Source of the DNA: Planctomycetota bacterium
GTDB taxonomy: Bacteria > Planctomycetota > OFTM77
Reading direction: 5' to 3'
Length of the DNA stretch: 64,000 nucleotides
Assembly: GCA_029260795.1 (NCBI GenBank)
Contig: JAJDCO010000094.1
Span: 161,193 to 225,192, forward strand
Of this stretch, positions 13,476 to 64,000 are shown piece after piece. A program made the translations under genes and the position numbers. Position 1 is the stretch's first letter; every line of letters starts with the position of its first letter. The notes below the pieces were generated by a model. It saw only the letters and a list, made by a program, of their open reading frames with translations, had not been told where the DNA came from and searched no databases.

Positions 13476-13479
13476 TCGT

Positions 13480-29166: not shown

Positions 29167-29179
29167 GGCCGAGAAGAGG

Positions 29180-29214: not shown

Positions 29215-29272
29215 TCGTGCTTGCGAGCGGGGTTGAGAGCGATCCACCCGCAGATTCTCGGTCAGGCGATCG

Positions 29273-29641: not shown

Positions 29642-29809
29642 GCGTTCTTGCAGAGTCGCTTCAGCCAAAATTCCACCCTCTCGCAATCGGGAATGTCTCA
29701 ACTTCATTCCCCCTTCGTCGGCCCTTATAACAGGCCACTCCGAGAAGGTCTCTCACGTATTTGAGCGGAATTGCGAAACGCGAGCATCTCGTCCCACAAT
29801 CCACGAGCT

Positions 29810-31084
29810 TCATTGCCAGGAGTATGCCGCCAGGCCGGTGAGCTCTCGAATGAAGATCTCGCGGCCGGACATTGCCAAATGAGCCCAGGTCTCCTGCTCC
29901 GAGACTCCGGCCTGATCCAGAACCTGGTAGGACTCGGGATTCGCCCGCAGCAAGTACAGCCGACCCGAGTCGGCCAACGCCAGGATACGGTCGCCCTGAC
30001 GTACCAGAGACCAGTAGGAGTCGCCAGTCGGAGGCGAGGTCCAACACGTCTCGCCGGTCGGAAGGTGAATGCAGGTGAATCGATTCGCACGCGTGAACAG
30101 ATAGGCATGCTCGTCGATGATCACCGGCGAGGTCATGTAGCCTTGGGTGGAGTTCTGCCAACCGGCCTCGATGTTCCAGCCGGCCTCGAGTCGACTCACG
30201 TTCAGCAGACGAGCCCTCGCGCCGTATGCGGCCGTGAAGATCCCTTCGTCAAAGACGATCGGCGTCAGGATGTTCATGCCGCGAAACGATGGCGTTTGCA
30301 TTCGCCACAGCACCGCGCCCTCCGACTCGCTCACGCCCTGGAGGTGAGTCCGCGACTGCACAACGAGCTGAGGGACACCACCCAGCGTGACACGGACTGG
30401 AGAGGCGAAGGCGCTGCCGTTCATGCCGCCCCCATCTCCCAGCGAGCGCCAGATCTCCTTGCCGGTCTCCTTGTTCAGCTTGACGAAGGCTCCGCCCGCT
30501 TGCACGTAGACCGCGTCGCCCACGACCAGCGGAGAGCAAACGAAGCCAAAGGCCGGGAGGTCGGTGCCTTGATCTTCGGAAAAGTCGACTCGCCAAACCA
30601 CTTCACCCGTCTTCGCGTCGAGGCACACGAGCAGGTCGCACATGCCGGCCACGTAGAGGCGTTGCCCGTCGAACGCAGGCGTCGAGCGCACCCAGGATCC
30701 GTTGCGAGCCGCGAAGAAGGGCACCTTCATGGCCCCCTCCCACTCAATCTTCCACAGCTCGTGCCCCGTTCGACGGTCCAGGGCGCGGACGACCTCGTGC
30801 GTCTCGTCTCGCGTCTCGACCGAGAAGACTCGGTCCGCGGTCACGATCGGCCCCGCGTAGCTCTCCCCGAGCTCGACTCGCCATTGCAGCTTCAGTCGCG
30901 CGTCTCCAAAGCCCTCCGGCCAGGTCGGCCCCGTGAACGTCCCGTCTCGCACCGGCCCTCGCCACTGGTTCCAATCCACGGGAGCGTCGGTCGTCAAAGT
31001 CTCGGCCGTCTTTTGGACGTCGTCATCCGAGAGACCGAATCCGAGTAGCGACAGGAGTCCAGAAGTCAGTGCCAGCGTGATCAT
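29810..31084 (-). CDS. PQQ-like beta-propeller repeat protein (paralog 2)
   Basis: Start set at ATG 31084 (MITLALTSGLLSLLGFG signal); WNQWRGPVRDG motif; propeller repeats. Confidence 0.8.
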   Translation of the reverse strand: MITLALTSGLLSLLGFGLSDDDVQKTAETLTTDAPVDWNQWRGPVRDGTFTGPTWPEGFGDARLKLQWRVELGESYAGPIVTADRVFSVETRDETHEVVRALDRRTGHELWKIEWEGAMKVPFFAARNGSWVRSTPAFDGQRLYVAGMCDLLVCLDAKTGEVVWRVDFSEDQGTDLPAFGFVCSPLVVGDAVYVQAGGAFVKLNKETGKEIWRSLGDGGGMNGSAFASPVRVTLGGVPQLVVQSRTHLQGVSESEGAVLWRMQTPSFRGMNILTPIVFDEGIFTAAYGARARLLNVSRLEAGWNIEAGWQNSTQGYMTSPVIIDEHAYLFTRANRFTCIHLPTGETCWTSPPTGDSYWSLVRQGDRILALADSGRLYLLRANPESYQVLDQAGVSEQETWAHLAMSGREIFIRELTGLAAYSWQ

Positions 31085-31189
31085 GAACCGCTCCAGGGAG
31101 ATGTCGACGACTGAGAGCACCCCGAGATGGGGGACGCGCTGACGTTCGACGGACAGCTCGGGGCAGATTCAGGCAGCGGCGAGGCTCCC

Positions 31190-31909
31190 TCAGTTCGAGC
31201 GCGCCCCGATCGGAATCAGGTAGAGCGGGAGCTCGCGAGGAGACCCCCCCAGCGCCGCACGCACGAGATCGGAATCGATCCCTCCGACGGGCACGGCCCC
31301 CAGATCGAGCGCAGTCGCTTGCAGCAACAGGTTCTGGGCCGCGTGCCCGGCCTCGAGCTGCACGTAACGGGGCGCGATCTCGGCGTCGTACTCCGCGGCC
31401 ATGCGGTCGACGACGCCACACAGCACGAAGACCGCGGGCGCTTGGGCGAGGACCTTCTGATCGTAGGCGGCCGCAGGCAGCGCCGAACGCAGGTCTCCTC
31501 GGCGGTACAAGATCAGGCGATGGTCCTGCGGCTCGTAATGATAAAGGCCTTCCGGCAGCACGATCCACAGCTCGAGTGGGTAAGCGGGTCCAGCCGACGG
31601 CGCCGTGCGATGCCCATCGGCGTCCGTCGTCCCCTGTGCAGCCCAGGCGAGCTGCGAGATCTCTTCACGGCTCAGAGAGCGACCTCCGAACTCACGAATC
31701 GAGCGCCGTTGAGCCAAGACCTCTTCGAGCGACCGCTCCCCTTTCAATCGGGGTGCGGGAAGCTCGATCGTCTCCAGAGCCTCGCCTCGCTCGATCGGTC
31801 CCGAGCCGGTCTCGTCGCCACAGCTCGCCAGCCCGGCGAGCCCAATCAGGAGCACGAGACGACACAGGCCCGTCACTCGGATCACTGAGACTCCCCGGCT
31901 TGGAGGCAC
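31190..31909 (-). CDS. SagB-type dehydrogenase / nitroreductase-family protein (lipoprotein-like signal)
   Basis: 239 aa; nitroreductase-like N-terminal motif RRSIREF...LSREEISQLAWAAQG and SagB-like PSAGPAYP; N-terminal LAGLASCG lipobox-like signal. Confidence 0.78.
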   Translation of the reverse strand: MPPSRGVSVIRVTGLCRLVLLIGLAGLASCGDETGSGPIERGEALETIELPAPRLKGERSLEEVLAQRRSIREFGGRSLSREEISQLAWAAQGTTDADGHRTAPSAGPAYPLELWIVLPEGLYHYEPQDHRLILYRRGDLRSALPAAAYDQKVLAQAPAVFVLCGVVDRMAAEYDAEIAPRYVQLEAGHAAQNLLLQATALDLGAVPVGGIDSDLVRAALGGSPRELPLYLIPIGARSN

Positions 31910-33147
31910 AGCAAGGCTCCGCGCGTCCGGACGAAGAGACGTCCCTGGGACCAGGCGGGAGTCGCCTGTGTGGGCTCACCGAGCTCGAGTCGCTGCAGCA
32001 GGCCAAACTCGGCTGCCGCACGAAGCACGAGCAGCTCGCCCGACGTGGTTCCGATGACGAAACGCTCGCCGATGCGAATCGGGGAGCCGAAGGTCTCGCC
32101 CCCCTCGACGCGCTCGCGCCAGTGGACCTCACCGGTCGAGCGGTCCAAGCAAGACGCCACTCCCGAGTCGCTCCAAAGAAACAGAGCGTCTCCGAGTCCG
32201 ATCGGGCTCGGAACGTAGGGGAGCGCCTGCTGGGCGCGAAAGAGGATCTCGGGCGCTTCCTTCGCCGGGTCGAGTGGGAGACGAACCGTGACGCTCTCCT
32301 TGCCCCCTCCACCGGAGCCTGCAGCCTGGATGAGTGTCCTCCCGACCAAACCAGATGATCCCACGCAGCGTTGCTCGAACAGGTCCTCCAAGGACCACAA
32401 GACCCGCCCGGTGCTCGGCTCGATCCCCGTCAAGCCGTGAGCCGTGCTCGCCGTGACGATCTGGATCGGTCCCCCATCGGGCTCGAAGGCCACGGGCGTC
32501 GCGTACGAGGCGCGAACGCTTCGACGGGGAATCCGCCATCGATCACGACCGGTCGCGGGGTCGAGACCGACGAGAAAGCCGTCTTCGCCCTCGTGCTCCT
32601 TCGCGACGATGAGGACGCCTTGAACGAGCAAGGGCGAAGCGCCACTACCGTGCTGGGCCTGGAAGGCACCCAGGTCTCGACGCCAAGCGGGCTCGCCGTC
32701 CAGCTTCAGAGCCAGCAGCTCGAGCTTCTCACCACTCGTCCAAGAGACATAGAGACGCTCACCGTCCACGGCCGGTGTCGAGGCCGCGAAGCTGTTGAGC
32801 CGGTGTTGCGAGTGGGACTGAAACTCGTACGAGCGCGACCACTGGACGGTGCCCGTTCGCACGTCGAGACAAGTGACGCGGCGTTTTCCGGTGTCGGGCA
32901 TCTCCTCGGTGAGGAAGAGCCGGTCGCCGCGGACCACGGGCGACGAGTGCCCTTGTCCTCCGGTCTTCACGCGCCACACGATCTCGAGCGGTCCCGCGTC
33001 GGCGGGCCATCCGGCATCGACCTGTCCGCGGGCGCCAGGCCCTCGGAAACCGGGCCAGTCCTGACTCGGCCAGCCGAGGCTTCCAAAGAGCAACGAGAAC
33101 ACCAGCAGGCTCATGAGCCACCGGACGAGCCGAACGCCGTGGCTCAT
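31882..33147 (-). CDS. PQQ-like beta-propeller repeat protein (paralog 3)
   Basis: Start set at ATG 33147 (MSHGVRLVRWLMSLLVFSLLFGSLG signal); WPGFRGPGARG motif. Confidence 0.8.
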   Translation of the reverse strand: MSHGVRLVRWLMSLLVFSLLFGSLGWPSQDWPGFRGPGARGQVDAGWPADAGPLEIVWRVKTGGQGHSSPVVRGDRLFLTEEMPDTGKRRVTCLDVRTGTVQWSRSYEFQSHSQHRLNSFAASTPAVDGERLYVSWTSGEKLELLALKLDGEPAWRRDLGAFQAQHGSGASPLLVQGVLIVAKEHEGEDGFLVGLDPATGRDRWRIPRRSVRASYATPVAFEPDGGPIQIVTASTAHGLTGIEPSTGRVLWSLEDLFEQRCVGSSGLVGRTLIQAAGSGGGGKESVTVRLPLDPAKEAPEILFRAQQALPYVPSPIGLGDALFLWSDSGVASCLDRSTGEVHWRERVEGGETFGSPIRIGERFVIGTTSGELLVLRAAAEFGLLQRLELGEPTQATPAWSQGRLFVRTRGALLCLQAGESQ

Positions 33148-33181
33148 GGACCATCTCCTCCTCGAGGGTGAGTCTTCTCGT

Positions 33182-34510
33182 TCAGGCTCCGCTCGCCTCA
33201 CCTTCGCCGCCGCCACTTCGGTGGATTCGCGGGCTCGCCTGACTCGGTGCCAGCGGGCGACCGTGCGAGAGCGGCTCGGGCAGAGTAGCAAAGGCCCTCA
33301 TGTCCTCGAACATCTGACCGAGGCTTTCTTGATAGACATTGCCGATCAGGCAATCCGTCAACGCCCGCCCGTGACTCGGGTGCGCCTTGAGGAAGTCACC
33401 AAAGTTGAAGCTCGAATCATAGAAGGCATAGACCAGTCGGCGCATGGCCTCGATGCCTTCGCAGAACCGATCGCCGTACTCGGTGAAGCGAGCGGCGCTG
33501 CAGTCTCCGTCCTTCAGGGCTTGCTCGACGGCATCCGCAGCCATGACCCCGGACTGCAAGGCCAGGAAGACACCGGAAGAGAAGACCGGGTCCAGGAAGG
33601 CGAAGGCATCGCCGGCGAGCAACAGGCCGTTGGCCGCGCAATGTCGCGATCGGTAGGAGTAGTCACCGGTCACCCGGAAGCTGCCGGCCTGTCGGCCTCC
33701 TCGAACGTGATCCCGAACCCACGGTTGAATGGCGAGCTCGCGCCGAAAGATCTCCTCGGGGTCGCGCGTGCCGCGGTACAGATACTCGCGGTCGGCGACG
33801 ACTCCGACGCTCACGCGATCATTCGCCATCGGGATGTACCAGAACCAGCCCTTCTCGGGCAGGTATGCGACCGTGGTCGCACCGGCATCGACACCGGTGT
33901 CGCGCTGAGCTCCGTCGAAGTAGGTCCAGATCGCGATCTTCTTGAGCACCTGATCCGGGATGCGCCACGAGTTCCGGAGCTGGGAGAAGGTATCCCGACC
34001 GCTGGCATCGATGGTGATGGGCGCATAGACCTCGTAGGTGCCGAGGTCCTTGGAATCGACCTCGAGGCCGGCCACCGAGTCTCCGTCCCAGATCAGCTGC
34101 CGGGCGGAGGTTTCGAACCGAGCCTCGGCTCCTTTCTCCACGGCATTGTCGACCATCAGAGTGTCGAAGTCGCTGCGCACGACCTGCCAGGTCCGCGAGC
34201 TGGGGTGATCGTCATGGTCGACGAAGTAGAAGGGTTTCGAGAGCTTGCCGCCAGTGTCGACGAACTGCACGCTCAGCTTCGGAAAGGCGAAGGCCGCCTG
34301 GTTCATCTTCTCCACCAGGCCCAGCCGATCGAGCGCGAACCAACAGTACGGGATCAAGGACTCCCCGACTCGGTAGCGAGGAAAGCTCTCCCGCTCGAGA
34401 ATGAGGACGGATCGACCGTACTCGGCCAAGACGGCGGCTGTCGCAGATCCTGCCGGTCCGGCGCCAATGACGATGGCGTCGAACTCGACCGGATGAGTCT
34501 TCGAGTTCAT
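33182..34510 (-). CDS. Flavin-dependent halogenase-like FAD enzyme (tryptophan-halogenase family)
   Basis: 442 aa; GxGxxG (IVIGAGPAGSATA), GESLIP region, Lys-containing AAFAFPKLSVQF segment, WxWxIP motif (GWFWYIP), C-terminal FLDPVFSSG motif. Confidence 0.8.
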   Translation of the reverse strand: MNSKTHPVEFDAIVIGAGPAGSATAAVLAEYGRSVLILERESFPRYRVGESLIPYCWFALDRLGLVEKMNQAAFAFPKLSVQFVDTGGKLSKPFYFVDHDDHPSSRTWQVVRSDFDTLMVDNAVEKGAEARFETSARQLIWDGDSVAGLEVDSKDLGTYEVYAPITIDASGRDTFSQLRNSWRIPDQVLKKIAIWTYFDGAQRDTGVDAGATTVAYLPEKGWFWYIPMANDRVSVGVVADREYLYRGTRDPEEIFRRELAIQPWVRDHVRGGRQAGSFRVTGDYSYRSRHCAANGLLLAGDAFAFLDPVFSSGVFLALQSGVMAADAVEQALKDGDCSAARFTEYGDRFCEGIEAMRRLVYAFYDSSFNFGDFLKAHPSHGRALTDCLIGNVYQESLGQMFEDMRAFATLPEPLSHGRPLAPSQASPRIHRSGGGEGEASGA

Positions 34511-34578
34511 GGAGCAAGCTCTTCTGGAGGATCAGGACTCGGAAGCGATCGAGTCGATCCCGGGTGACCGGGACAGCG

Positions 34579-36405
34579 TTATCCGTCTCTTCGTTCACCC
34601 ACGGCAATGAGATGATGCTGAGTCCGAAAATACAAAACACCTTCCGAGAGGGCGGGCGACGCCATCGTCGGATCCTTCAATGAGTTGACCTCGAGAATCT
34701 CGAACTCCGGTCCCAGCTTCACGACGTAAACCTCCCCGTCCTCACTCGCCTGGTACAGCTTCCCGTCTCCAGAAACGCCCGAAGCCGTGAAGCCGTAGCC
34801 GCCCATCTGGGTGTTGGCGAGTCGCTCGCGATAGATCTCGTCGCCCGTTTTGGCGTCGAAGCACGACAGGACACCGAGATCGTTGCAGCAGTAGAGAAGG
34901 TCGCTCGCGACCAACGGCGTCTGCATGTAGTTGCCGCGCCGCATGTGGAACCAGGCGAGGTCCTTACTGGTCGGCAGCGTCGAGAGCTTACCGCTGGCAT
35001 CGAGCGGAATCGCATAGATCGGCGCGTGGCGTCCATGCGCATTCGTGATGTAGGCGAGGTCATTCGCGACGATCGGTGTCGGGACCGGGATGTCCCCGCC
35101 CCCTTCCAACCACCAGAGCGCCTCTCCCGTCTCGAGGTCATATCCGCCGATGTGCTTCCAGCCATTGCAGATCACCTGCGACCGCTGCTTCCCGACGTGC
35201 ACGGTCGGCGTTCCCCAGGTGGGCACTTCCTCACGCTCGGTGCGCCAGAGGTCTTCGCCCGTCTCGAGCGACAAGGCCCCCACCCACGACTGCGCTTGAA
35301 TGTCGACCTGAAGGATGATCTTGTCCTCGTGGATGACCGGTGAGCTCGCGAAGCCCCACTGAGCCTGCGGCATCGAGAAGTAGCCCGAGTCCAGGAGACC
35401 GAAGTCCTCGCGCTTCCACAGCAGCTTGCCATCGCGGTCGTAGCAGTAGAGCCCTTCCGAGCCGAAGAACGCGACCACACGATCGCCGTTCGTCGCGACC
35501 GACGAGGCGGCGTGGCTGCCCTTGGGATGCCGCTTCACCTGGGGCATCCCGCCCCACGCCGTCTGCGACCACAGCAGATTGCCCGTGTGCTTGTCGTAGC
35601 AGAGCACACGAAACGTCTGAGCGCCTTCGTCTTCCACCGGCGCGATCGAGCCGTACAACCCGACCTTGAGCTCGGCCTCACCTTCGTTCGCACCGACCGC
35701 CGTCGTCAGGTAGAGACGTTCGCCCCAGATCACGGGGCTCGAGTGCGCCAAGCCCGGAACGTCGATCTTGAAGACGACGTTCTCGCCGCTTTCGACGTTC
35801 CACTTCGTCGGCAGCGGATACCCGTCGGAGTGGCCTCGAGCCTGCTCGCCGCGGAAGGCCGGCCAGTTGCCGTCGCCCTTATCTGTGGGAGCCGGACCGT
35901 CACTCGCCTCGGCCCGCTTCTCGAGGCGCCCATACATCTGGCCACCATGGTCGCCCGCATCCCAGATGCCCGCGTATTGTCCGCGGAAGAACACGACGCG
36001 CGCGGAGAACGTGCCCATGCCCGGCACCGGCACGTCCGTGAGCGTGATGACGGGCGTATCTCCTGCCCACTTCACCTTGACGGGTGCCGGCCAGACCGAG
36101 TCCGTCTTGCCGTACTGGATCCGGGCCGTGATCAGCCAGAGGTCCCCGATCATCTTGCGCGCACCCTGAATCGAGTAGCGCTCCTCTTGCGGGGCCGTCT
36201 TTTGACCCGTGACGGTGAAATGTCCGACCAGGTCGACTCCGGTCAGCATCTGGGCGAACTCGTCCTCGAGACGCTCACGGTCGTTCGGCTTGGCCGTCTC
36301 GGGGGGCGGAGCCGACTCGTCGGTTTCGGTTTGAGCGATCAACGGCAACGTGCCGACACCCAAGACCAGCAGAACGACAGCCCGGGCGAGCCAGTGGCGG
36401 ATCAT
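34579..36405 (-). CDS. PQQ-like beta-propeller repeat protein with ~170 aa N-terminal extension (paralog 4)
   Basis: 608 aa; signal peptide; extra N-terminal domain, then WPAFRGEQARG and propeller repeats. Confidence 0.8.
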   Translation of the reverse strand: MIRHWLARAVVLLVLGVGTLPLIAQTETDESAPPPETAKPNDRERLEDEFAQMLTGVDLVGHFTVTGQKTAPQEERYSIQGARKMIGDLWLITARIQYGKTDSVWPAPVKVKWAGDTPVITLTDVPVPGMGTFSARVVFFRGQYAGIWDAGDHGGQMYGRLEKRAEASDGPAPTDKGDGNWPAFRGEQARGHSDGYPLPTKWNVESGENVVFKIDVPGLAHSSPVIWGERLYLTTAVGANEGEAELKVGLYGSIAPVEDEGAQTFRVLCYDKHTGNLLWSQTAWGGMPQVKRHPKGSHAASSVATNGDRVVAFFGSEGLYCYDRDGKLLWKREDFGLLDSGYFSMPQAQWGFASSPVIHEDKIILQVDIQAQSWVGALSLETGEDLWRTEREEVPTWGTPTVHVGKQRSQVICNGWKHIGGYDLETGEALWWLEGGGDIPVPTPIVANDLAYITNAHGRHAPIYAIPLDASGKLSTLPTSKDLAWFHMRRGNYMQTPLVASDLLYCCNDLGVLSCFDAKTGDEIYRERLANTQMGGYGFTASGVSGDGKLYQASEDGEVYVVKLGPEFEILEVNSLKDPTMASPALSEGVLYFRTQHHLIAVGERRDG

Positions 36406-43099: not shown

Positions 43100-44434
43100 T
43101 CACGCATAACGCGCATTGCGGTGCTCCGAGCGGAAGAAGCGCGGCAACAGCTCATCGATGCGAAGTAGAGCGTCGCGCGTCACGTCAACCGCCTGCTCCG
43201 TCACCTTGAAATCACCCTGCGCCTCGAGCTCGGCCAGAGGCTCGGCGAAGCGTTGGCGCGGATCCTCCCCAAACTTCTGACGGAAGTACTCCAGCGGCAA
43301 GTGGCCGAGCTTGAGCTGCAAGATGAACTCTCGCACGAACTGCTCATCCTTCGTGAGCACCAGCGCCCGATGAATCGGAAGCTCGCCTCGCTCGACGCGT
43401 TCCACGTAGGGCTCGTAACGATGCTCGTTCTGCAGATGAACACCGCCGAGATGGCCGAACGACGACACGCCCAGGCCGATCAGATCTGCGCCCGTCCACA
43501 GCGCATCGCGATACCGGAACTCGATCCCCTCACCCTTCTTGGCCGTGGTGACCGAACCGATCTGGTATCCCGCCCGCTCCAGGGCAGCGTAGGCCTCTTG
43601 AGTCCAGCGTCGCTTGGTGGGCCAGTCGGCGACGGGAGCGACCTGCGTTCCGCCCTCTTGCATGCGCTGATAGATCGTCGTGTTGTACGGGACCTCGAGC
43701 TGATAGATGGTCACGTTGTCCGGCTCGAGCTTCAGCGTCTCCTCGATACAGCGGCGCCAGTTCTCATCCGTCTCGCCGACCATGCCGGCGATCAGATCGA
43801 TGTTGATCTGTTCGAAGCCGACATCCCGCGCCGTCTGGTAGGCGCCGTAGATCTCCTTGGCTCGATGGGCGCGGTTGTTGAGCGCGAGGATCTCGGCATT
43901 GAAGTTCTCGACACCCAGGCTCAGTCGCGTCACACCCAGCTCGTGAAGGACCTCGATCTTCTTCGTCTGCAGCGTGCCCGGCTCACACTCGAAGGTGACC
44001 TCCTCGGCCTCTGACCAGTCGAAGATGTCGCGCAACCCTTCGAACAGGAATCGGAGCTGATCCGGGGAGAGGTAGGACGGCGTGCCACCCCCGAAGTAGA
44101 CGAGCTTCGGTTGGCGACCTACGAGATAGGGCTGCTCGGCGTAGAGCCGTGACTCGGTCAGGACCGCATCGAGGTAGCGACGAACGTCTTGGGCGTTCTT
44201 GTCGGTGTAGACCTTGTAGTAACAGAAGTCGCAGCGCTTTCGGCAGAACGGAATGTGCACGTAGAGACCGAGCATCGGCGGAGACTCGGCCCCTTCCGAG
44301 AGAAGCTGGAGGACTCTCGGGACTTGGTCTTCTCGCCAGAACGAGAAGGGCGGGTAGTTGGCGATGAAGTAGTTACCGACCGTCGTCTCTTCTGTGGAAG
44401 GACCTGGGCTCTTCGGCTCATCGGAGCTCATCAA
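43100..44434 (-). CDS. Radical SAM enzyme, HemN-like (oxygen-independent coproporphyrinogen-III oxidase family; class-C radical SAM methyltransferases share this fold)
   Basis: 444 aa; CxxxCxxC cluster motif (CRKRCDFCYY), GGGTPS motif, C-terminal HemN_C-like region. Confidence 0.83.
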   Translation of the reverse strand: MMSSDEPKSPGPSTEETTVGNYFIANYPPFSFWREDQVPRVLQLLSEGAESPPMLGLYVHIPFCRKRCDFCYYKVYTDKNAQDVRRYLDAVLTESRLYAEQPYLVGRQPKLVYFGGGTPSYLSPDQLRFLFEGLRDIFDWSEAEEVTFECEPGTLQTKKIEVLHELGVTRLSLGVENFNAEILALNNRAHRAKEIYGAYQTARDVGFEQINIDLIAGMVGETDENWRRCIEETLKLEPDNVTIYQLEVPYNTTIYQRMQEGGTQVAPVADWPTKRRWTQEAYAALERAGYQIGSVTTAKKGEGIEFRYRDALWTGADLIGLGVSSFGHLGGVHLQNEHRYEPYVERVERGELPIHRALVLTKDEQFVREFILQLKLGHLPLEYFRQKFGEDPRQRFAEPLAELEAQGDFKVTEQAVDVTRDALLRIDELLPRFFRSEHRNARYA

Positions 44435-45630
44435 CGACCTCGTTTCTTCTCACCGGACTTCTGATCCGACTCACCGAACACGTACAGCAGTCCGTCATTG
44501 GCGCCGATCAGGATGCGACCGCCCGCCACGGCGGGCGAGGAGAAGATCGACTGGCCGATGTCGTACGACCACGTCTCTTCGCCCGTTGCGGCATTCAAGA
44601 CATACAGGCGGCCATCCGCCGAGCCGAAGACCACGCGGTCGCCACAGAGCACCGGCGAGGCGTCGATCTTGCGTCGCGTCTTGAACGCCCACACCTCTTC
44701 GCCATCGGCGAAGCGAACGCAGTGCAGCTTCTTGTCACGACCCCCGAAGTAGACGAGGTCCTCGCCGATCGCGGGTGACGAGAAGAAGGCGTTCCGGCCG
44801 TCGCCGAACGACCAGACCTCCTCGCCTTTGTTCAGATCGAGGCGCACGAACGCGTTGCCGTAGTGGCCGAAGAACGCTTGGTCGCGATCGACTCCGACCG
44901 AGCCCGCGATGTAGCTCTCGGCTCCCATGTCGAGCTGCGACTGGGCTTGCCCCTCGGCGAGGGACACCACGTGCAGGCGAGCGTCACAGCCGCCAAACAC
45001 GATCTGATCGTTCCAAACCGCCGGCGTTCCGTTGACGTAGTTCTCCGTCTCGTAGCGCCACACCGGCTCGCCCGTCTTCGCATCCAGACAGTAGAGAGCG
45101 GAGTCGTAGCTCCCGAACACGACGCGACGGCCCTCAGCCGACTCGAAGAGCGTCGCTCCCCCTTGAACCTTGTCTCCGGTCTCGAACTTCCAGCGCAGAT
45201 CCCCCGTCTTCTTGTCGAGGGCGTAGAAGAAGCCGTCCGTGGAGCCGACGTAGACCGTGTCCCCGCTTACGGTCGGGGGCGCCTCGATCATGTCCTCCGT
45301 CGCGAATCGCCAGAGGCCGCGGCCGGTCTCGAAGTCGATCGCGTGGAGGTGGTAGTCGTCGGAGCCCACAAACACTCGCCCGCCCTCGATCACTGGAGAA
45401 GAGGCGATGGCGGCTTCCGTTGCGTACGTCCAGAGCAGTCGAGGCTCCGCTGGGAGTCGCCCCGAGGCGACTCCGGTCTGACTCGGATTCCCGCGGAAGC
45501 TGGGCCACTCGCTCGAGGTCGGGGAGGCAACCGGCTTCGCCGTCGGCTCTTGAGCGCAGATGGCTCCGGACACCAGCATGCCGACCATCAGGAGCGCCAA
45601 CGCCAGAATGCGATCGCCTCGTCGATTCAT
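44431..45630 (-). CDS. PQQ-like beta-propeller repeat protein (paralog 5)
   Basis: Start set at ATG 45630 (MNRRGDRILALALLMVGMLVSGAICA signal); WPSFRGNPSQTG motif; 4-nt overlap with the HemN-like gene. Confidence 0.8.
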   Translation of the reverse strand: MNRRGDRILALALLMVGMLVSGAICAQEPTAKPVASPTSSEWPSFRGNPSQTGVASGRLPAEPRLLWTYATEAAIASSPVIEGGRVFVGSDDYHLHAIDFETGRGLWRFATEDMIEAPPTVSGDTVYVGSTDGFFYALDKKTGDLRWKFETGDKVQGGATLFESAEGRRVVFGSYDSALYCLDAKTGEPVWRYETENYVNGTPAVWNDQIVFGGCDARLHVVSLAEGQAQSQLDMGAESYIAGSVGVDRDQAFFGHYGNAFVRLDLNKGEEVWSFGDGRNAFFSSPAIGEDLVYFGGRDKKLHCVRFADGEEVWAFKTRRKIDASPVLCGDRVVFGSADGRLYVLNAATGEETWSYDIGQSIFSSPAVAGGRILIGANDGLLYVFGESDQKSGEKKRGR

Positions 45631-45702
45631 CTCCACCTCACTCGTCAACCGGGTCTTTCGGGGGTTCATCGGGTCTAAACCATGATCTGCCAAGGTGCAA
45701 GC

Positions 45703-51292: not shown

Positions 51293-51441
51293 TCCGGAGC
51301 ACCGGCGATCGAGGAAGTCGAGGGGCCTGGCTCCTTCCCGATCGAGCGCGCACGTCAGTGACGTCCCTCGCGGACGATTGGCGCGTAATCTAGCGAAAAC
51401 AGCCCCGCTTCGCGACGATGTTCGGACGGCACGCGGTCAAT

Positions 51442-51463
51442 CGACCTCCCACCCGATTCGGGG
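51442..51463 (+). repeat. Degenerate copy of dispersed repeat module B (CGACCTCCCACCCGA-TTCGGGG)
   Basis: Matches the core of the modules at 51664-51716, 63442-63479 and 63586-63667 with a short internal deletion. Confidence 0.5.
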
Positions 51464-51566
51464 TCTGTCCAAGAGGTGTCCGAACAAGTGGTCCCGTGAG
51501 ATTCACGAAGGCCACTTCGGACCTTTGGCTTTCAGCCGGCACTTCGACCCTTCGACGAGCCGAATC

Positions 51567-51592
51567 GGAGGGCGGACTTCAGTCCGCTGGAA
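51567..51592 (+). repeat. Dispersed repeat module A (GGAGGGCGGACTTCAGTCCGCTGGA; contains palindrome GCGGACT-TC-AGTCCGC)
   Basis: Near-identical copy at 63524-63550; partial copy at 63491-63506; related GGAGGGCGGACTTCCGCC at ~17240. Confidence 0.6.
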
Positions 51593-51663
51593 GGTCGATC
51601 GACATCAGGCCGCTGCGGTGCGAGTCTAGGGGCGGCCGATGCCCCGACGAACCGACTCGAGGC

Positions 51664-51716
51664 TGACGACCTCCCACCCGAATGAATTCGGGCCTCCGAG
51701 GGGCGGTCTGGAAGCA
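51664..51716 (+). repeat. Dispersed repeat module B (TGACGACCTCCCACCCGAATGAATTCGGGCCTCCGAGGGGCGGTCTGGAAGCA; contains palindrome CCCGAAT-GA-ATTCGGG)
   Basis: Copies at 63442-63479 and, expanded by internal tandem duplication, at 63586-63667; same orientation and same A-then-B order at both loci. Confidence 0.6.
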
Positions 51717-51762
51717 GCCGGCTGTCCGTAATCATCGTCGGTCGACCGCCGGCTTCCCGTCC

Positions 51763-53157
51763 CTACCGATCCACCGCATCACCGACCGCGCGACGACACA
51801 GCTCTTCAGCACGCTTCACCAGCTCGTCGTCCCTCAGCGTCGCGTTCGAGAACACCATCTCGACCGCGATGCTGCCGCGCGCTCCGACCAAGCTCAGAGT
51901 CTCGATCCGATCGGGCCCGGCTCCCTCCAGCCCCTTGGCTGCCAGCACTGCCTGGAAGCCCGGGCGGCGGATCGACTCGTAGCGTGGATCGACGATCCGG
52001 ATGGAGCCGGTCTTCATCGCCTCGTCTTTCAGCTTGCCCAGCTGCTCGAAAGCAGCGACGTAGCCGAGCGCACCGGCCGCGTCCTTGAACTCGTACAGCC
52101 CCACGATGACCTGCTGAGCCGGATTCTCGGCCGGGGCCATCACCAGCAATCGGTTGTGCAGGAGCGATCCGACGACCTGCTCGACGGACTCCTTGGGCAG
52201 GAGGGCGAGCGCGGCCGCGATCTGCGGCTTCACTGCCACGGCTTGCTGCGCATTCCAGCCCTCGAAGGTCTTCGAGAACTCGGTGAGAGCTCCTTCGAAG
52301 TCGTGTTTCAGCTCCGGACGCTTGGAGGGATCGAGATACCACTCGGGATGGAGGATCACGTCGAGATCTGCCGGCGGCTCGCGAAACAGTCGCCCAACCA
52401 GCTCCGCCTGCTCGGCGTCTCCTTGCCCCTCCAGGAGGGTCGCCACGAAGCGCTCGCCGTCGTAGTACGCGACGCTCATCGACGCCGCCGCGACTCGGCT
52501 GAGCAACTTCGTCGCCTCGTCACCCTTTTCGGGAACCCAACCGATGGCCGACGTGAACTGATCGAAGGCCTCTTTCCAGCCCTGCTGCTCGCACACCTGG
52601 CGAGCTCGATGCTGGGCGTATCCTTCGATGATCGCCTGATAGGCCTGAAAGCGGCCGGCCGTCGACAGGGTGTCGAGCACCTTGCCGAACTCGTGCCGCT
52701 GGTCGTCGAGCGCGTGCATCGCCTCGTGGACCAACACGGCTTGCAGGCACTGACGTGAGTTGAGCTCCGGCTTCTCCATGAGCTTCGAGAGGTTCTCGAA
52801 GTTGGTCGCACAGATCAGGATCGTCTGCGAGTCGAATGCATACTTCCCGAGCAGAGCCATCGAGAGCGCGCCGGCACCGAGCCGAGCTTGCGTTTCGGGA
52901 TCTTCGATCCCCTGTGCCCGGAGCTGTCGCTCCAGCTCGGGCCGGAGCACCTTCGCGATGTCCGCCGGCTCGGCGAGGCGCACCTTCGTCTCCGGCATCT
53001 CGAGCTCGAGCGCTGCCTCGATGGCCCGCTCGGCCTCCGACCAGCATTCGCGCAGCAACGCGGCGTCGATCTCGAAGGCATCGGAAGCCTCGAGATCCTG
53101 GCTGCAGGAGAGGGGCGACAGCAACAGGACCGCGATCAGGACAGGAAGGGCACGCAT
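51763..53157 (-). CDS. Secreted HEXXH-motif protein, putative zinc metallopeptidase (paralog-like to 18828-20234)
   Basis: Start set at ATG 53157 (MRALPVLIAVLLLSPLSCS signal); VHEAMHAL followed ~25 aa later by EGYAQH, the same HEXXH...EGxA arrangement as the 18828-20234 protein. Confidence 0.65.
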   Translation of the reverse strand: MRALPVLIAVLLLSPLSCSQDLEASDAFEIDAALLRECWSEAERAIEAALELEMPETKVRLAEPADIAKVLRPELERQLRAQGIEDPETQARLGAGALSMALLGKYAFDSQTILICATNFENLSKLMEKPELNSRQCLQAVLVHEAMHALDDQRHEFGKVLDTLSTAGRFQAYQAIIEGYAQHRARQVCEQQGWKEAFDQFTSAIGWVPEKGDEATKLLSRVAAASMSVAYYDGERFVATLLEGQGDAEQAELVGRLFREPPADLDVILHPEWYLDPSKRPELKHDFEGALTEFSKTFEGWNAQQAVAVKPQIAAALALLPKESVEQVVGSLLHNRLLVMAPAENPAQQVIVGLYEFKDAAGALGYVAAFEQLGKLKDEAMKTGSIRIVDPRYESIRRPGFQAVLAAKGLEGAGPDRIETLSLVGARGSIAVEMVFSNATLRDDELVKRAEELCRRAVGDAVDR

Positions 53158-53365
53158 CGGGATTCTCCTGGAATTCGTCGCAGCGGCGTTGGGCGAGCCG
53201 CGATCATCGCAAAGGAACGCGGGTCCGAGAAGCGCCGTTCGGCCTCGAGGTGACGCCACGACGTTCCCACCACGGCTCTCGACGGAGCCCCTTGCCCCGA
53301 CTGCGGTGCCCGAGGACACTAGGGGCCGGTCCGACGCGCTCGCCCACCGATTCGGGAGGCTGTCC

Positions 53366-54640
53366 GTGCTGTTTTCGCAGGTGATGCTCTTTTCCGTCCT
53401 CCTAGGGACCTCGACCATCCGCGACGAAGAAGCGGCCGCTTGGCCGGACTTTCGTGGACCGCGCGGCGACGGGCACGCCATCGCCACTGCTCGCCCGCCC
53501 GTCGAATGGAGCGAAGAGCGGTACGTGACCTGGAAGACACCCGTTCACGGGCTCGGCTGGTCGTCGCCGGTCGTCGTCGACGGTCAGGTGTGGATGACCA
53601 CCGGCACCGAAGATGGGCACCGACTCTCGGTGGTTGCCGTCGATCTCGCGTCGGGCGCGGTCGTGCACGATCGCGTGCTGTTCGAGGTCGATGAGCCCCA
53701 GTTCCGGAATGCGCTCAATAGCCATGCCTCCCCCTCACCCGTCGCGATGCCTGGCCGCGTGTTCGTCCACTTCGGCGCCTACGGAACGGCGGCCTTGGAC
53801 TCCCGGACGGGCGAGACGGTTTGGCAACGACGCGATCTCCCCTGCCAGCACCTGATGGGACCCGGTTCCTCTCCCGTGCTGGTCGACGGTCGCCTCGTGC
53901 TCACTTTCGACGGGGCCGATCGTCAAGTGGTCGTGGGACTGGACCCGGCGACTGGCGAGACGCTCTGGGAGACGCCGCGCTCGACCGACTTCACGAACAT
54001 CATCCCGGACCAACGCAAGGCTTACGGAACGCCCTTCGTCGCCGAGGTCGACGGCCAGCGGCAGCTGGTGAGCGTGGGCGCGCAGGCGGCGTTCGGACTC
54101 GATCCCCGCACCGGCGTCGAGCTGTGGCAGGTGCGAATCCCCGGCTACTCCATGTCCTCGCGCCCCTTCGCGGGCCGCGGCCTGACCTTCATCAACACCG
54201 GCTTCGATCGACCGCAGCTCTGGGCAATTCGCCTGGGTGGTCTGGGCGATGTGACCGAATCCCACGTAGCATGGAAGGAGACGCGCAGCCTCCCGACCAT
54301 CGCCTCGAAGGTGCTCGTCGACGACCGAATCTACCTGGTCAGTGACGGAGGCGTGCTGGGCTGTTTGAAGGCGGACACCGGCGAGACGATCTGGCGCGAG
54401 CGCATCGGGGGCCGCTTCTGCGCCTCGCCGATCGTGGCCGGCGGACACGTCTACTTCTTCGACCGCGAGGGCATGGCCACGGTGATCGTACCCGAGGACG
54501 AGTATCGCCTCGTCGCCCAGAACAGCCTCGAGGCGGGCTGCATGGCATCGCCCGCCGTCATCGGAAACGCCCTCATCGTCCGCACGACCTCCCACCTCTA
54601 TCGGATCGAGGGCCCGAAGCGGGCCGACTCGAAACGCTAG
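53366..54640 (+). CDS. PQQ-like beta-propeller repeat protein (paralog 6)
   Basis: Start tentatively GTG 53366, preceded by GGGAGG 6 nt upstream (ATG 53384 is an alternative); WPDFRGPRGDG motif; propeller repeats. Confidence 0.78.
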   Translation: MLFSQVMLFSVLLGTSTIRDEEAAAWPDFRGPRGDGHAIATARPPVEWSEERYVTWKTPVHGLGWSSPVVVDGQVWMTTGTEDGHRLSVVAVDLASGAVVHDRVLFEVDEPQFRNALNSHASPSPVAMPGRVFVHFGAYGTAALDSRTGETVWQRRDLPCQHLMGPGSSPVLVDGRLVLTFDGADRQVVVGLDPATGETLWETPRSTDFTNIIPDQRKAYGTPFVAEVDGQRQLVSVGAQAAFGLDPRTGVELWQVRIPGYSMSSRPFAGRGLTFINTGFDRPQLWAIRLGGLGDVTESHVAWKETRSLPTIASKVLVDDRIYLVSDGGVLGCLKADTGETIWRERIGGRFCASPIVAGGHVYFFDREGMATVIVPEDEYRLVAQNSLEAGCMASPAVIGNALIVRTTSHLYRIEGPKRADSKR

Positions 54641-60368: not shown

Positions 60369-62726
60369 ATGCTCGCCGTTCTGTGGTCCACGTTGCTCCC
60401 GCTCGCGATCGCCTTCCACGACCCCGAGACTCCACCTGCGCTCGAGCTCCGCTACGACCGCCCCGCCTCCCAATGGGTCGAGGCTCTCCCGATTGGAAAC
60501 GGTCGGCTGGGTGCCATGGTCTTCGGGGAGCGTGCTCGAGAGCGGCTCCAGCTCAACGAGGATACGGTTTGGGCAGGCCCTCCGTTCCCGACTGCTCGAG
60601 AAGGGGCCGCCGAAACCATTCGAGAGGCGCGCCAGCTGTTCTTCGCGGGGCGAGCCGCCGAGGCCGAAGCCCTCGTTCAGGCGAAGGTGATGAATCCGAG
60701 GATATCCCCCCGCAGCTATCAGCCCCTCGGCGACCTGCGAATCACTTTCGACGACCCGCTGCCTGAGGATGCCGAGTATCTGCGCACCCTCGACCTCGAC
60801 ACGGCCATCGCCACCGTTCGACTCGAGTCCGGCGCCGATTGGCAGCAGCGCGAGTTTCTCTCGAGTGTCCCCGATCAGGTCATCGCCGTTCGCCTGACCG
60901 GCAGCCAGCCTCTGAGCCTGAGCGTGAGCCTGACGCGAGCCCTGGGCGCCCAGACGACGGCTCTCGGTCCGGATCGGCTCGAGATGCGCGGCCAGGCCAG
61001 CCACGGAGAGAAGCACCTCGGCGTGCAGTTCGTCTCGCAGCTCCAGGTCGTCAACCAGGGCGGAACGCTGTCCATCCTGGACGGAGCTTTGCGCGTGGAA
61101 GACGCCGACGCCGTCACGCTGCTGCTCGTCGCTGAAACCAACTACTCCGGAGCCCGCGACCTGTCCCAGGGGTGTGCCAACACCCTCGCCGCGCCGAGTG
61201 GGAAGACCTGGGAGCAGATTCGAGACGCCCATGTCGTCGAGCACCGTCGGTTGTTCCGACGCGTCTCGCTCGACCTCGGTGGTCCATCGAGCGAGAACCG
61301 AACGACCGACGCCCGGCTGGCGGCCGTCCGCGCCGGGGGCGTCGACCCCGGCCTCGAAGCCCTTCACTTCCAGCTCGGTCGCTACCTCTTGATGTCGTGC
61401 TCCCGGCGCGGCAGCTTGCCGGCCAACCTCCAAGGGCTCTGGAACGAGCACTTCGAAGCGCCCTGGAACGCCGACTACCACACCAACATCAACCTGCAGA
61501 TGAACTACTGGCCGGCCGAGGTGACCGGCCTGGCCGAGTGCCATGAGCCCCTGCTCCAGTTCATCGAGTGGCTGAGCGCCTCCGGACGGTCGGTGGCCCG
61601 CACGCATTACGATTGCGATGGTTGGGTCGCCAATCACACCACCGACGCCTGGCTAGGTACCGCCCCGCACGGTCGAGTCGAGTGGGGCATGTGGCCGATG
61701 GGCGGCGGCTGGCTGGTTCAGCATCTCATGGAGCACTATCGCTTCGGTGGGGACGAGGTCTTCCTGCGCCGGGAGGCCTGGCCTCCCCTGAAAGGTGCGG
61801 CCGAGTTCTTCCTCGACTGGCTCGTCGAGCATCCCGAGACGAAGAAGCTCGTGTCGGGACCTTCGACGTCGCCCGAGAACCGATACGTGCTTCCCGATGG
61901 GCAGGAGGCCTGCCTCTCCATGGGCGCGGCCATGGACCAGCAGATCATCTGGGACACCTTCTCGAGCTGCATCGAAGCGGCCGAGATTCTCGAGATCGAG
62001 GACGACTTCGTGAAGCGCGTCGCCGCGGCCAGAGAAAGGCTGGCCGGACCGCAGATCGGATCCGATGGACGCCTACTCGAATGGGATCGAGAGTATCAGG
62101 AGAAGTGGCCCGGACACCGACACATCTCACACCTGTACGCCCTGCACCCGGGTCATCAGATCGATCGGCACCGGACGCCGAAGCTGGCTGCCGCCGCGCA
62201 CAAGTCGCTCGAGCATCGCCTCGCGAACGGCGGCGGACACACCGGCTGGAGCCGGGCTTGGATCATCAACTTCTTCGCCCGCCTGGGTGACGGAGACAAG
62301 GCCCACGAGAACCTCATCGCGCTGCTGCGCAAGTCGACCTTGCCGAACCTTTTCGACGACCATCCCCCCTTTCAGATCGACGGCAACTTCGGCGGCACGG
62401 CCGGCATCGCCGAGATGCTGCTCCAAAGCCAAGCGGGTGTGATCGAGCTCTTGCCGGCACTTCCCAAGGCCTGGCCACAGGGGAAAGTCTCGGGCCTGCG
62501 CGCGCGCGGAGGCTTCGTCGTCGACATCACGTGGGCGAACGGTCAGCTCGTGAAGGCCGAGCTCACCTCACTCCGTGGCGAGCGATGCCGTCTGGTTCCC
62601 GGGTCGACGGGACGACTTCGCACGGCGGACGGCGAGCCAGTCGAGGTCAACGGCGAGGCGTTCGGAAGCTGGCTCTTCGAAACGGTGCCGAATCAGACCG
62701 TGGTCTTCGAAGCGGTCCGGCGGTAG
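60369..62726 (+). CDS. Glycoside hydrolase family 95 (alpha-L-fucosidase-like), secreted
   Basis: 785 aa; N-terminal signal; GH95-type N-terminal motif ([18 protein letters not shown]) and (alpha/alpha)6 catalytic region. Confidence 0.87.
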
Positions 62727-62750
62727 CCGGCGGACTCCGTTCAGGTCCTT

Positions 62751-62824
62751 CGGACCCGCCGGCTTTCAGAGTCTGTCCAACAAGTGTGCGAGTCGAGGTG
62801 ACTCTTTGGACCGCCGGCTTTCAG
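62751..62824. repeat. Short palindromic element flanked by direct repeats (GGAC(C)CGCCGGCTTTCAG x2 around AGAGTC...GACTCT)
   Basis: Direct repeats at 62751-62769 and 62807-62824; inverted repeat AGAGTC (62771-62776) / GACTCT (62803-62808) between them; related GGCTTTCAGCCGGC at 51527-51540. Confidence 0.4.
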
Positions 62825-63044
62825 CCGGTGCGTTACGCCTCGTGATTCGTGAACTCTCCGGACGACTTCGTCCCGGGTCGAGCCTGCGGAAAGTACAAAT
62901 GTTGCCGAACACGTAACGATCCCGGCTGAAGCCCAAGGTTGCAAAAACCGAGGCCTGTCGGGGCCTCTTGGCCAGCCTTGTCAGGGGAGGAGGCCTGTTG
63001 GCTAGCCGCCACCCCGACGAACGGAAGGTGATTCGGGCCGACTT

Positions 63045-63065
63045 GGTAATCATATGATATTTACC
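63045..63065. promoter_or_regulatory. AT-rich palindromic site GGTAA-TCATATGA-TATTTACC (operator/promoter candidate)
   Basis: Central perfect palindrome TCATATGA flanked by inverted GGTAA/TTACC arms, inside the only strongly AT-rich island of a gene-free repeat region. Confidence 0.3.
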
Positions 63066-63128
63066 TCATTTTAGTGCAACAAGAGAGCCCGTTCGGTCAC
63101 GACGCTCCGCTCCCCAGAAAACACCGTC

Positions 63129-63146
63129 TCGTTTTGCAAAGCTGGG
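63129..63146 (+). repeat. 18-bp direct repeat TCGTTTTGCAAAGCTGGG (copy 1)
   Basis: Identical 18-mer recurs at 63671-63688; the two copies bracket the segment carrying the module A/B repeats. Confidence 0.5.
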
Positions 63147-63390
63147 ATTCAGTCGAGCGGGAGGGCTTCTCGCGCACCGCTCTCTCACCCACGCTCTTCG
63201 AAGGCGAATCGCCCCGCCGACAGGCCACGAGGATGAAGTGGCGCGACCTGTCGAACTCCGTTCGGGTCTCTGTACCCCATGCACGTGCGAGAAGGCAGAG
63301 CCTCCGACGGTAATCGTCACGCGAGACCGACTGCGAAGCGGACTGAAAACCCGAGCGTTGAAAAAGCTCCAGCGCGCCGACTTGAAGATC

Positions 63391-63416
63391 TGAACGTTGA
63401 ACGTTGAACGTTGAAT
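63391..63416 (+). repeat. Tandem heptamer repeat (TGAACGT x3, then TGAATCC)
   Basis: Three perfect 7-mer copies at 63391-63411 followed by a degenerate fourth. Confidence 0.6.
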
Positions 63417-63441
63417 CCGCCTGATCGAGCGGAGGCGAGGT

Positions 63442-63479
63442 TGACGACCTCCCACCCGAATGAATTCGGGCCTCCGAGG
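63442..63479 (+). repeat. Dispersed repeat module B, copy 2
   Basis: TGACGACCTCCCACCCGAATGAATTCGGGCCTCCGAGG, identical to the core of 51664-51701. Confidence 0.6.
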
Positions 63480-63490
63480 AGCCGGGTGGG

Positions 63491-63552
63491 TTCAGTCCGC
63501 TGGATACTCGCCGACTGAAAACCGGAGGGCGGACTTCAGTCCGCTGGATACG
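63491..63552 (+). repeat. Dispersed repeat module A: partial copy plus full copy (TTCAGTCCGCTGGATAC duplicated 44 nt apart)
   Basis: 63524-63550 matches 51567-51592; 63491-63508 repeats its 3' half. Confidence 0.55.
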
Positions 63553-63585
63553 CCCTCGGCGATCACGACGGCTTCGCAAGGGCGA

Positions 63586-63667
63586 ACGACCTCCCACCCG
63601 AATGAATTCGGGCCTCCGAGGAGCCGGGCCTCCGAGGAGCCGGGCCTCCGAGGGGACGGTCTGGAGC
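63586..63667 (+). repeat. Dispersed repeat module B, copy 3, expanded by internal tandem duplication (GGGCCTCCGAGGAGCC x2.75)
   Basis: Same ends as 51664-51716 (ACGACCTCCCACCCGAATGAATTCGGG ... GG(G/A)CGGTCTGGA(A)GCA) with the 16-mer tandemly repeated. Confidence 0.6.
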
Positions 63668-63670
63668 ATT

Positions 63671-63688
63671 TCGTTTTGCAAAGCTGGG
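63671..63688 (+). repeat. 18-bp direct repeat TCGTTTTGCAAAGCTGGG (copy 2)
   Basis: Identical to 63129-63146. Confidence 0.5.
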
Positions 63689-63911
63689 CTGAAGCCGGCG
63701 GTCCAAGAACGGTGGTCAACAAGCAACTCGGGCCCCTTCATTTGATATCCCTGAGACTGGATCGAGGGATCGTGATCCGACTTCGTGGACAGGCCCTGAA
63801 AACCGCGATCCCGGCCAATGATCAAGCGGCCGACCACTCCTCGCCGATAGATCCGAGAGATTCCGGACCCGGAGCGGGGCCGGTTCCTTCGATCTCTACG
63901 GCGACTGGCCA

Positions 63912-64000
63912 ATGCTGCTCACTTCTGGGCTGGCGCGCGCGCTGCTCATCGTTGCCGCCCTCGCCGGACTGACGGCGATACTGCTGCCGATTGCCGAGGC
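63912..64000 (+). CDS. Possible 5' end of a CDS running off the window (signal peptide/TM-like N-terminus)
   Basis: ATG at 63912 followed by MLLTSGLARALLIVAALAGLTAILLPIAE..., open to the window end; only ~29 codons visible. Confidence 0.3.
   Translation, partial: MLLTSGLARALLIVAALAGLTAILLPIAE

Follow-up and report, generated by a model that had tools for sequence, protein, structure and literature searches.

The DNA analyzed here is a window of 64,000 nt from a contig of a Planctomycetota bacterium, and this report concerns the spacer at positions 62727-63911 of that window (1185 nt, ~1.2 kb), which separates a gene for a GH95 alpha-L-fucosidase from the next gene downstream. The spacer is non-coding and probably represents a cluster of short, dispersed hairpin modules. 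The GH95 gene ends at a TAG stop codon (62724-62726), and the original prediction for this spacer, which was made from the sequence alone, had set its end correctly at 63911, directly before the ATG of the next gene. The N-terminus of the downstream gene product, MLLTSGLARALLIVAALAGLTAILLPIAE, looks like a signal peptide or a transmembrane segment. The GC content is 0.61 in the spacer and 0.65 in the whole window. The two flanking genes are as follows.

60369-62726 (+): GH95 alpha-L-fucosidase gene, the upstream neighbor, identified by its Pfam GH95 domains
63912-64000 (+): start of the downstream gene, with ATG at 63912 and a return of the periodicity in GC content at third codon positions (GC3); the gene is cut by the end of the window

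The spacer harbors a 33-nt hairpin module, here termed X, which has the form 5'-CGACCTYCCA, one arm of a 6-bp stem, the loop TGAA, the second arm of the stem, and CCTCCGA-3'. The copies within the spacer include two variants of the stem, X1 and X2.

63445-63477 (+): X1 module, CGACCTCCCA-CCCGAA-TGAA-TTCGGG-CCTCCGA; covariance model, 59.9 bits
63484-63510 (-): degenerate X2 with one stem arm broken; TTCAGTCCGCTGGA is common to 51578-51591
63522-63554 (-): X2 module, ..TCCA-GCGGAC-TGAA-GTCCGC-CCTCCGG; covariance model, 50.8 bits
63587-63619 (+): second copy of X1, within a 43-nt perfect direct repeat; covariance model, 63.5 bits

The window matches the pattern CCA-N6-TGAA-N6-CCTCCG five times, compared to 0.10 matches expected, and all five matches form perfect stems, occurring at two loci and in both orientations. 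Three of them are plus-strand copies of X1 (stem CCCGAA/TTCGGG; 51674, 63452, and 63594) and two are minus-strand copies of X2 (stem GCGGAC/GTCCGC; 51566 and 63523). In every copy, the stem is bordered by CCCA or TCCA at its 5' end and by CCTC at its 3' end. The X stem covaries: X1 and X2 share 79% identity across the 33 nt, and their stems differ at three of the six pairs, each of the three differences being compensatory, with all cells paired (100%). The covariation score was reached by none of 500 shuffles, and slid registers collapse. When the five copies were used to build a covariance model, it recovered in the window only those copies, plus degenerate ones at 51438-51461 and 17244-17262. 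Altogether, the 64 kb covered contain five full and three degenerate copies of X in three intergenic loci, and one further locus was found via P0242, an open reading frame (ORF) called as a protein across another copy of the spacer repeats. The 43-nt perfect direct repeat occurs at 63444 and 63586, with a spacing of 142 nt.

Elsewhere in the window, the modules of the spacer (locus A) recur between genes in region B (51438-51760) and in region C (17244-17536). In addition to X, the modules described below as Y, Z, the tail linker, and the 58-nt module are spread over these three regions.

51438-51760 (both strands): cluster B, composed of a truncated X1, Y, Z, X2 (-), X1 (+), the tail, and a Z-like piece; repeat comparison and covariance model
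17244-17275 (+): half X2 plus GCTTTGCAGAGG in region C, upstream of a gene for a Cys/Met pyridoxal phosphate (PLP)-dependent enzyme

Fold energies were compared with those of dinucleotide shuffles. Cluster B folds with z = -2.8, and its truncated X1 is predicted to pair with X2 as a long hairpin. P0242, which is located on a 29,190-bp NCBI contig, reads through a further copy of 63237-63480 and the tail, and it shares 53 identical residues with the minus-strand translation of the window. The identity is split by a 10-residue insertion, IQRTEVRPP, which is a translated X2. Since the order of modules consequently differs between copies, the repeats are a mosaic and not one unit element; the modules are thus both dispersed and arranged as a mosaic. 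Region C (17197-17638 when taken with its margins) also contains 17 nt that match 63018-63034 in reverse complement, besides the half X2 and the 58-nt module. A SAM (S-adenosylmethionine)-type riboswitch upstream of the Cys/Met gene, an idea suggested by a GCAAAGCU motif, found no support in Rfam, and no other riboswitch was detected.

The distribution of X was examined in a relative and in larger sequence collections. The protein collection contains no close relative of the GH95 of the window, the best non-self match being 61% identical among the matches listed. The adjacent glutamate dehydrogenase (GDH) has an 83%-identical homologue in the Planctomycetota metagenome-assembled genome GCA_040219065.1, on a contig (L008) that is syntenic for the genes of GH95, GDH, peroxiredoxin, saccharopine dehydrogenase, PQQ (pyrroloquinoline quinone), DUF3311, and SSF. 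The GH95 orthologue on L008 is 68% identical. X is missing from this relative, as no copy was found in 14 kb of L008, including the spacer upstream of DUF3311/SSF that corresponds to region B. Neither the exact X1 core nor a degenerate flank-loop-flank pattern had a match in GTDB representative genomes, and the exact X2 sequence had none in viral contigs. A metagenome scan with a 20-mer of X1 yielded six contigs, none of which came from this lineage and whose flanks are unrelated. The best reading of this distribution is that the X family is lineage-specific. Cluster B has the DUF3311/SSF operon on one side and, on the other, a gene missing from the relative. This gene (51763-53487, minus strand) is directly beside the repeats; its product is a hypothetical protein that looks exported or lipoprotein-like and has no Pfam match. 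The gene is absent from the syntenic L008 and may have arrived together with the repeats of cluster B.

A second hairpin module, Z, reads GGACCGCCGGCTT(T)CAGCCGG, i.e., GGACCGCCGGC-TT(T)CA-GCCGG, and has a 5-bp stem (CCGGC/GCCGG) and the flank GGACCG. Copies of Z in the window are found at 62748, 62804, and 51515 on the plus strand and at 63687 on the minus strand. Two of these copies, together with the Y module, occupy the beginning of the spacer.

62725-62764 (+): hairpin overlapping the GH95 stop codon, AGCCGGCGG ... CCGCCGGCU, with a 9-bp stem; minimum free energy and centroid folds of 62724-62850
62748-62769 (+): Z copy 1, CTTCGGACCCGCCGGCTTTCAG; direct-repeat family D8
62765-62803 (+): Y module, GTCTGTCCAAnAnGTGTnCGA, carrying the inverted hexamers AGAGTC/GACTCT; homologue at 51457-51483 with 81% identity over 27 nt
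62804-62829 (+): Z copy 2, CTTTGGACCGCCGGC-TTTCA-GCCGGT, a 5-bp GC hairpin; matches L008 186-209 at 23/25 nt

The direct repeat pair described around the inverted hexamers in the original prediction is indeed present, with CCGCCGGCTTTCAG at 62756 and 62811 (family D8); when extended, the pair spans 22 nt with 91% identity. The first 127 nt counted from the stop codon (62724-62850), which comprise the stop-codon hairpins and Z, fold with z = -2.1. In both the window and L008, the Z that follows GH95 reads TTYGGACCGCCGGC(T)TTCAGCCGGT and lies 25-80 nt past the stop, with 23 of 25 nt in common. Z has been retained at this position while the GH95 proteins of the two genomes are only 68% identical. 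The Z hairpin after the GH95 stop is probably the 3'-end hairpin of the GH95 mRNA, where it would serve as a shield against exonucleases or in termination without a U-tract. No match to an intrinsic terminator (GC hairpin plus U-run) was found on the plus strand after GH95.

The remaining part of the spacer contains the linkers that join the hairpins, tandem arrays, and several elements with other characteristics.

63129-63155 (+): 18-mer copy 1, TCGTTTTGCAAAGCTGGG plus a TTCAG half-hairpin, holding the palindrome TTTGCAAA; family D3
63237-63428 (no strand assigned): W-V segment including the TGAACGT array; a near-identical copy is on the 29,190-bp NCBI contig, with an extra X2 inserted there
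63609-63653 (+): tandem 16-mer CGGGCCTCCGAGGAGC x2.8, the 3' flank of X1; score 90, 100% matches
63641-63665 (+): tail linker CGGGCCTCCGAGGGGACGGTCTGGA; also after X1 at 51689-51712, with 96% identity over 25 nt
63671-63706 (-): 18-mer copy 2 fused to Z copy 3 (GGC-TGAA-GCC GGCGGTCCAAG, the reverse complement of Z); pair I2
63735-63791 (+): 58-nt module, common to 17479-17536 with 81% identity
63045-63065 (no strand assigned): AT-rich imperfect palindrome GGTAA-TCATATGA-TAT-TTACC
62949-62967 (-): terminator-like GC hairpin followed by a T-run

The tail linker has the form CGGGCCTCCGAGGGG(A)CGGTCTGGA (also given as GGGRCGGTCTGGA) and is located behind X1 at loci A and B. The tandem heptamer and the tandem 16-mer expansion noted earlier are both present, the former as TGAACGT x3.6 at 63391-63415 and the latter as CGGGCCTCCGAGGAGC x2.8. 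Short repeats containing ACGTT are found downstream of GH95 in both genomes, namely the TGAACGT array in the window and, at ~75-110 of L008 (reverse strand), two copies of GTTGGACGTT spaced 15 nt apart; P0242 contains the residues LNVQRSTFNVQ. The ACGTT-containing repeats could be a conserved protein-binding motif. The AT-rich palindrome at 63045-63065 had also been pointed out before, and it does lie in the sole AT-rich stretch, with a GC content of 0.275 over 40 nt compared to 0.61 for the region. A promoter check at this palindrome gave no sigma-70 consensus promoter; it could be a candidate protein-binding site or promoter. All features listed in the original prediction were found where it had placed them, above chance.

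Based on these results, we consider it reasonably probable that the spacer is a mosaic of short, lineage-specific, dispersed hairpin modules, forming a cluster similar to the repetitive extragenic palindromes (REPs) and bacterial interspersed mosaic elements (BIMEs) of other bacteria. The building blocks would be the GC-rich hairpins X and Z, with TGAA or TTCA loops and in both orientations, and these would be joined by linkers, i.e., Y, W-V, the tail, the 18-mer with its TTTGCAAA palindrome, and the 58-nt module. The 142-nt duplication and the arrays of the 16-mer and the 7-mer indicate local growth by duplication and slippage, and a cluster of this kind would have grown by these steps. Selection would act on the ability of single-stranded DNA or RNA to form hairpins. 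Spread of the modules may be due to a process or transposase that recognizes hairpins, or to recombination between copies. In the usual model for REPs, spread is attributed to a REP-associated tyrosine transposase (RAYT) acting on single-stranded DNA. The last ~180 nt of the spacer would then be the upstream region of the next gene.

The assignment to the REP/BIME kind is based on an anatomy that agrees with published descriptions, in which REPs have stems of 6-9 bp, are extragenic and mostly downstream of genes, form BIME clusters of alternating orientation, and are found in Planctomycetes (PMC3733652). Moreover, REP sub-families with alternative complementary stem residues have been described (PMC3733652). 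The kind of element is therefore already known, while the family, which is untagged and lineage-specific, is new and comes from an uncultured member of the Planctomycetota.

The behavior of assemblies at this locus was also considered. Assembly ends 213-225 nt past the GH95 stop both in a Logan contig from the same sample (L001) and in L008, the NCBI contig of the relative. Two independent assemblies that break at this distance from GH95 point to repeat-induced breaks, a behavior expected where repeats are dispersed. Up to 62939, L001 and the window are 100% identical, which independently confirms the first 213 nt of the spacer.

Several points weigh against the REP/BIME-like reading. The X and Z hairpins are without the stem-adjacent GTAG/CGTC tag that is typical of most described REPs; CGTC occurs in only two of the five X copies and is several nt off the stem. 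The covariation of X comprises only two stem variants and hence a single evolutionary event. The copy counts are those of 64 kb of the genome and do not demonstrate that copies are numerous genome-wide. Second copies were detected for modules that make up about half of the 1185 nt of the spacer, and none was detected for the other half or so (roughly 62830-63230). No REP-associated (Y1) transposase was found among ~45 scanned ORFs of the window, although a single such gene may be located elsewhere in the genome. As there is no U-tract past Z, this hairpin is also not a canonical intrinsic terminator.

The region had further been proposed to encode structured non-coding RNA. This part of the original prediction was not supported, as a scan against Rfam was empty up to E<=10 and the folds are no better than those of shuffled sequence except in the first 127 nt. 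With Rfam 15, nothing but a tRNA (tRNA-Glu) passed the gathering threshold anywhere in the window, and at E<=10 only noise was obtained in regions A, B, and C. The fold z-scores for the two strands are -1.2/-0.9 at 63425-63712, +0.2/+1.0 at 63225-63445, and -0.45/-0.84 at 62830-63230. The folding models therefore contain local hairpins but give no support to one large structured RNA. A narrower version of this idea would invoke genuine small RNAs or cis-regulatory leaders, with two candidates: the 58-nt element, also present in the leader of the Cys/Met gene, and a minus-strand small RNA ending at the hairpin at 62967-62950. The 58-nt element is located 100-120 nt upstream of a plus-strand start codon at both loci, and its 13-bp hairpin is maintained by way of G-U changes, although its consensus fold is weak (-8.95 kcal/mol, from two sequences) and toward its 3' end it is similar to the reverse-complemented Y repeat, sharing ..CTCTTGGACAG.. 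with it. A covariance model of this element recovered only the two known copies, plus weak matches on Y modules. The element may act as a promoter or operator, or it may be a further module of the mosaic. The minus-strand hairpin is followed by a T-run, but one such terminator-like match was found where 1.6 are expected, which is chance frequency. The structural constraint on the X hairpins would also be compatible with an RNA function, yet each locus has X in both orientations, no Rfam family was matched even at E<=10, and 62830-63712 folds like shuffled sequence on both strands. We regard small RNAs or leaders as an unlikely explanation of the spacer.

A mobile origin was the other half of the original proposal, in which 63147-63670 would be a decayed, non-autonomous element similar to miniature inverted-repeat transposable elements (MITEs), flanked by a duplicated 18-bp target, TCGTTTTGCAAAGCTGGG. 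The region is gene-free and contains dispersed repeat families, which favors the mobile or repeat element half of the original reading, while insertion boundaries at the 18-mers are not supported. The perfect 18-bp direct repeat is present at 63129 and 63671 (two matches compared to 0.03 expected), it brackets 524 nt of repeat-rich DNA, and much of the bracketed DNA (63237-63480 and the tail) has a copy elsewhere. On the other hand, the similarity of the two copies runs past the 18 nt to 23 of 27 nt (family D3), which is unexpected for a target-site duplication, 18 bp far exceeds the usual length of such duplications, and no terminal inverted repeats are found within the direct repeats. No transposase was found among the ~45 scanned ORFs of the window. 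The composite of a TTCA hairpin and GCTTTGCA occurs also at 17244-17275 and apparently at the P0242 locus, where P0242 appears to retain GCTTTGCAA beside its tail, placing the 18-mer inside the repeated unit. The second copy of the 18-mer is part of the element at 63671-63706, which forms a 15-nt perfect inverted repeat with 62806-62820 (pair I2), and the palindrome TTTGCAAA inside the 18-mer is found nowhere else in the window. From the continued similarity, the missing terminal inverted repeats, and the recurrence of the composite, the 18-mer is best read as a further mosaic module rather than as a target-site duplication. A MITE-like insertion is accordingly an improbable account of the spacer.

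It is more doubtful still that TGAA-loop hairpins with CCUCC flanks (GGAGG on the other strand) constitute a distinct, functionally constrained class of elements that goes beyond passive REP-like DNA. Such a class could be an RNA module that sequesters or mimics the Shine-Dalgarno or anti-Shine-Dalgarno sequence or is bound by a protein, or it could be a family spread by some non-RAYT transposase. A wider, undescribed class is hinted at by unrelated metagenome contigs that have the same loop, compensatory stems, and sometimes the identical CCCGAATGAATTCGGG core. Three of these contigs, with a GC content of 0.56-0.58, harbor an intergenic hairpin family of their own (L002 686-853, L005 6279-6554, and L006 1752-1917). 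These hairpins have a TGAA or TTCA loop and 8-bp stems, and their stem variants are compensatory (CCCCCGAA/TTCGGGGG vs CCCCCATC/GATGGGGG). One of them, CACCCGAA-TTCA-TTCGGGTG, has the CCCGAATGAATTCGGG core of X1. The six metagenome loci gave nothing relevant in Rfam, and the hairpin family of the three contigs is not in that database. These observations suggest that the architecture of a hairpin with a TGAA loop is common in uncultured bacteria, with the 20-mer used as the search query forcing part of the resemblance.

The weakest alternative is that the spacer is a frameshifted or decayed protein gene, or an artefact of collapsed or chimeric repeats in the assembly, and we consider this highly improbable: although a 271-aa ORF on the minus strand (63097-63912) has been called as protein P0241 by one source and other assemblies break within the spacer, this ORF is an Arg-rich read-through of repeats, an independent assembly is identical over the first 213 nt, and the modules recur at two further well-assembled loci. 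The periodicity of GC content over codon positions, which is strong within GH95 (about 0.45/0.82/0.70), is lost at 62727 and returns near 63875. In Pfam, the seven longest ORFs of the spacer had no match at E<=0.1, the sole listing being at E = 0.2 and far below the family cut-off. A HMMER search with the 271-aa ORF against 1.84 billion representative proteins recovered two proteins, P0241 itself and P0242, so that its homologues are limited to repeat-derived ORFs, and comparison of a concatenated six-frame translation with 5.8 billion proteins produced no match at E<=10. The earlier statement that the region contains no credible coding sequence is thus borne out, and annotators should be aware that the ORFs P0241 and P0242 are spurious.

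The wider surroundings of the spacer contain at least seven paralogous genes for PQQ-like beta-propeller proteins (PQQ_2 domain; 27871-36405, 44431-45693, and ~53600-54640) along with sulfatase and GH95 genes, a gene set typical of a polysaccharide-degradation context in Planctomycetota. A gene for a XerC/D-type tyrosine recombinase (12421-13347, within 12421-13557, minus strand) adjoins the tRNA-Glu gene (13480-13557), which is flanked by palindromes on both sides (13445-13476 and 13616-13649).

The finding of a REP/BIME-like cluster alone opens no new question. It explains the assembly breaks after GH95 in this lineage and adds a tag-less family from a poorly sampled lineage of the Planctomycetota, and the clean compensatory variation in the stem may be used to seek the protein or process that recognizes it.

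In comparison with known systems, the spacer differs from an array of clustered regularly interspaced short palindromic repeats (CRISPR) in that its repeats are spaced by 142, 16, 16, 44, and 542 nt and have mixed orientations. Z resembles intrinsic terminators and 3' stabilizer hairpins in its position 20-80 nt past the GH95 stop, which is conserved in the relative, whereas intrinsic terminators differ from it in that Z has no U-tract and occurs also in the opposite orientation and at other positions of the clusters. As in MITEs (e.g., Correia, ERIC, and RUP), the elements are small, non-coding, dispersed, intergenic, and able to fold into hairpins. However, the modules here have neither a fixed unit length nor terminal inverted repeats with target-site duplications, and they combine freely, with an order that varies between copies and no movement as one unit. 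The hallmark of a REPIN, a doublet of inverted REPs, or of a REPtron is a RAYT gene (IS200/IS605-type Y1 transposase) flanked by the repeats. Inverted pairs of X are similarly predicted to form a longer hairpin (51439-51600 and 63445-63510), and the modules are present in this genome and missing from a related one, although the spacers between them are variable and contain other modules, uniform doublets are not seen, and no RAYT gene is seen in the 64-kb window.

The closest resemblance is to REPs and BIMEs. REPs in the broad sense are imperfect palindromes of 20-40 bp, and X is 33 nt in length with a 6-bp stem in all five copies, while the stem of Z is 5 bp. As in REP sub-families, X1 and X2 differ at three of six stem pairs, all of them compensatory. 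As in BIMEs, the modules are clustered in alternating orientation, + - - + in cluster A (63445-63619) and (+) - + in cluster B (51442-51699), with shared tail, Y, and Z linkers. The bases next to the X stem (CCCA/TCCA and CCTC) set this family apart from the GTAG/CGTC-tagged super-families of REPs, and its flanks containing CCTCC, which resemble the anti-Shine-Dalgarno sequence, and its uncultured Planctomycetota host set it apart from the REPs and BIMEs of Enterobacteria and Pseudomonas. With the latter it nevertheless shares stem-loops of ~33 nt with 6-bp stems, the joining of these by linkers into mosaics, a position mostly downstream of genes, and species specificity.

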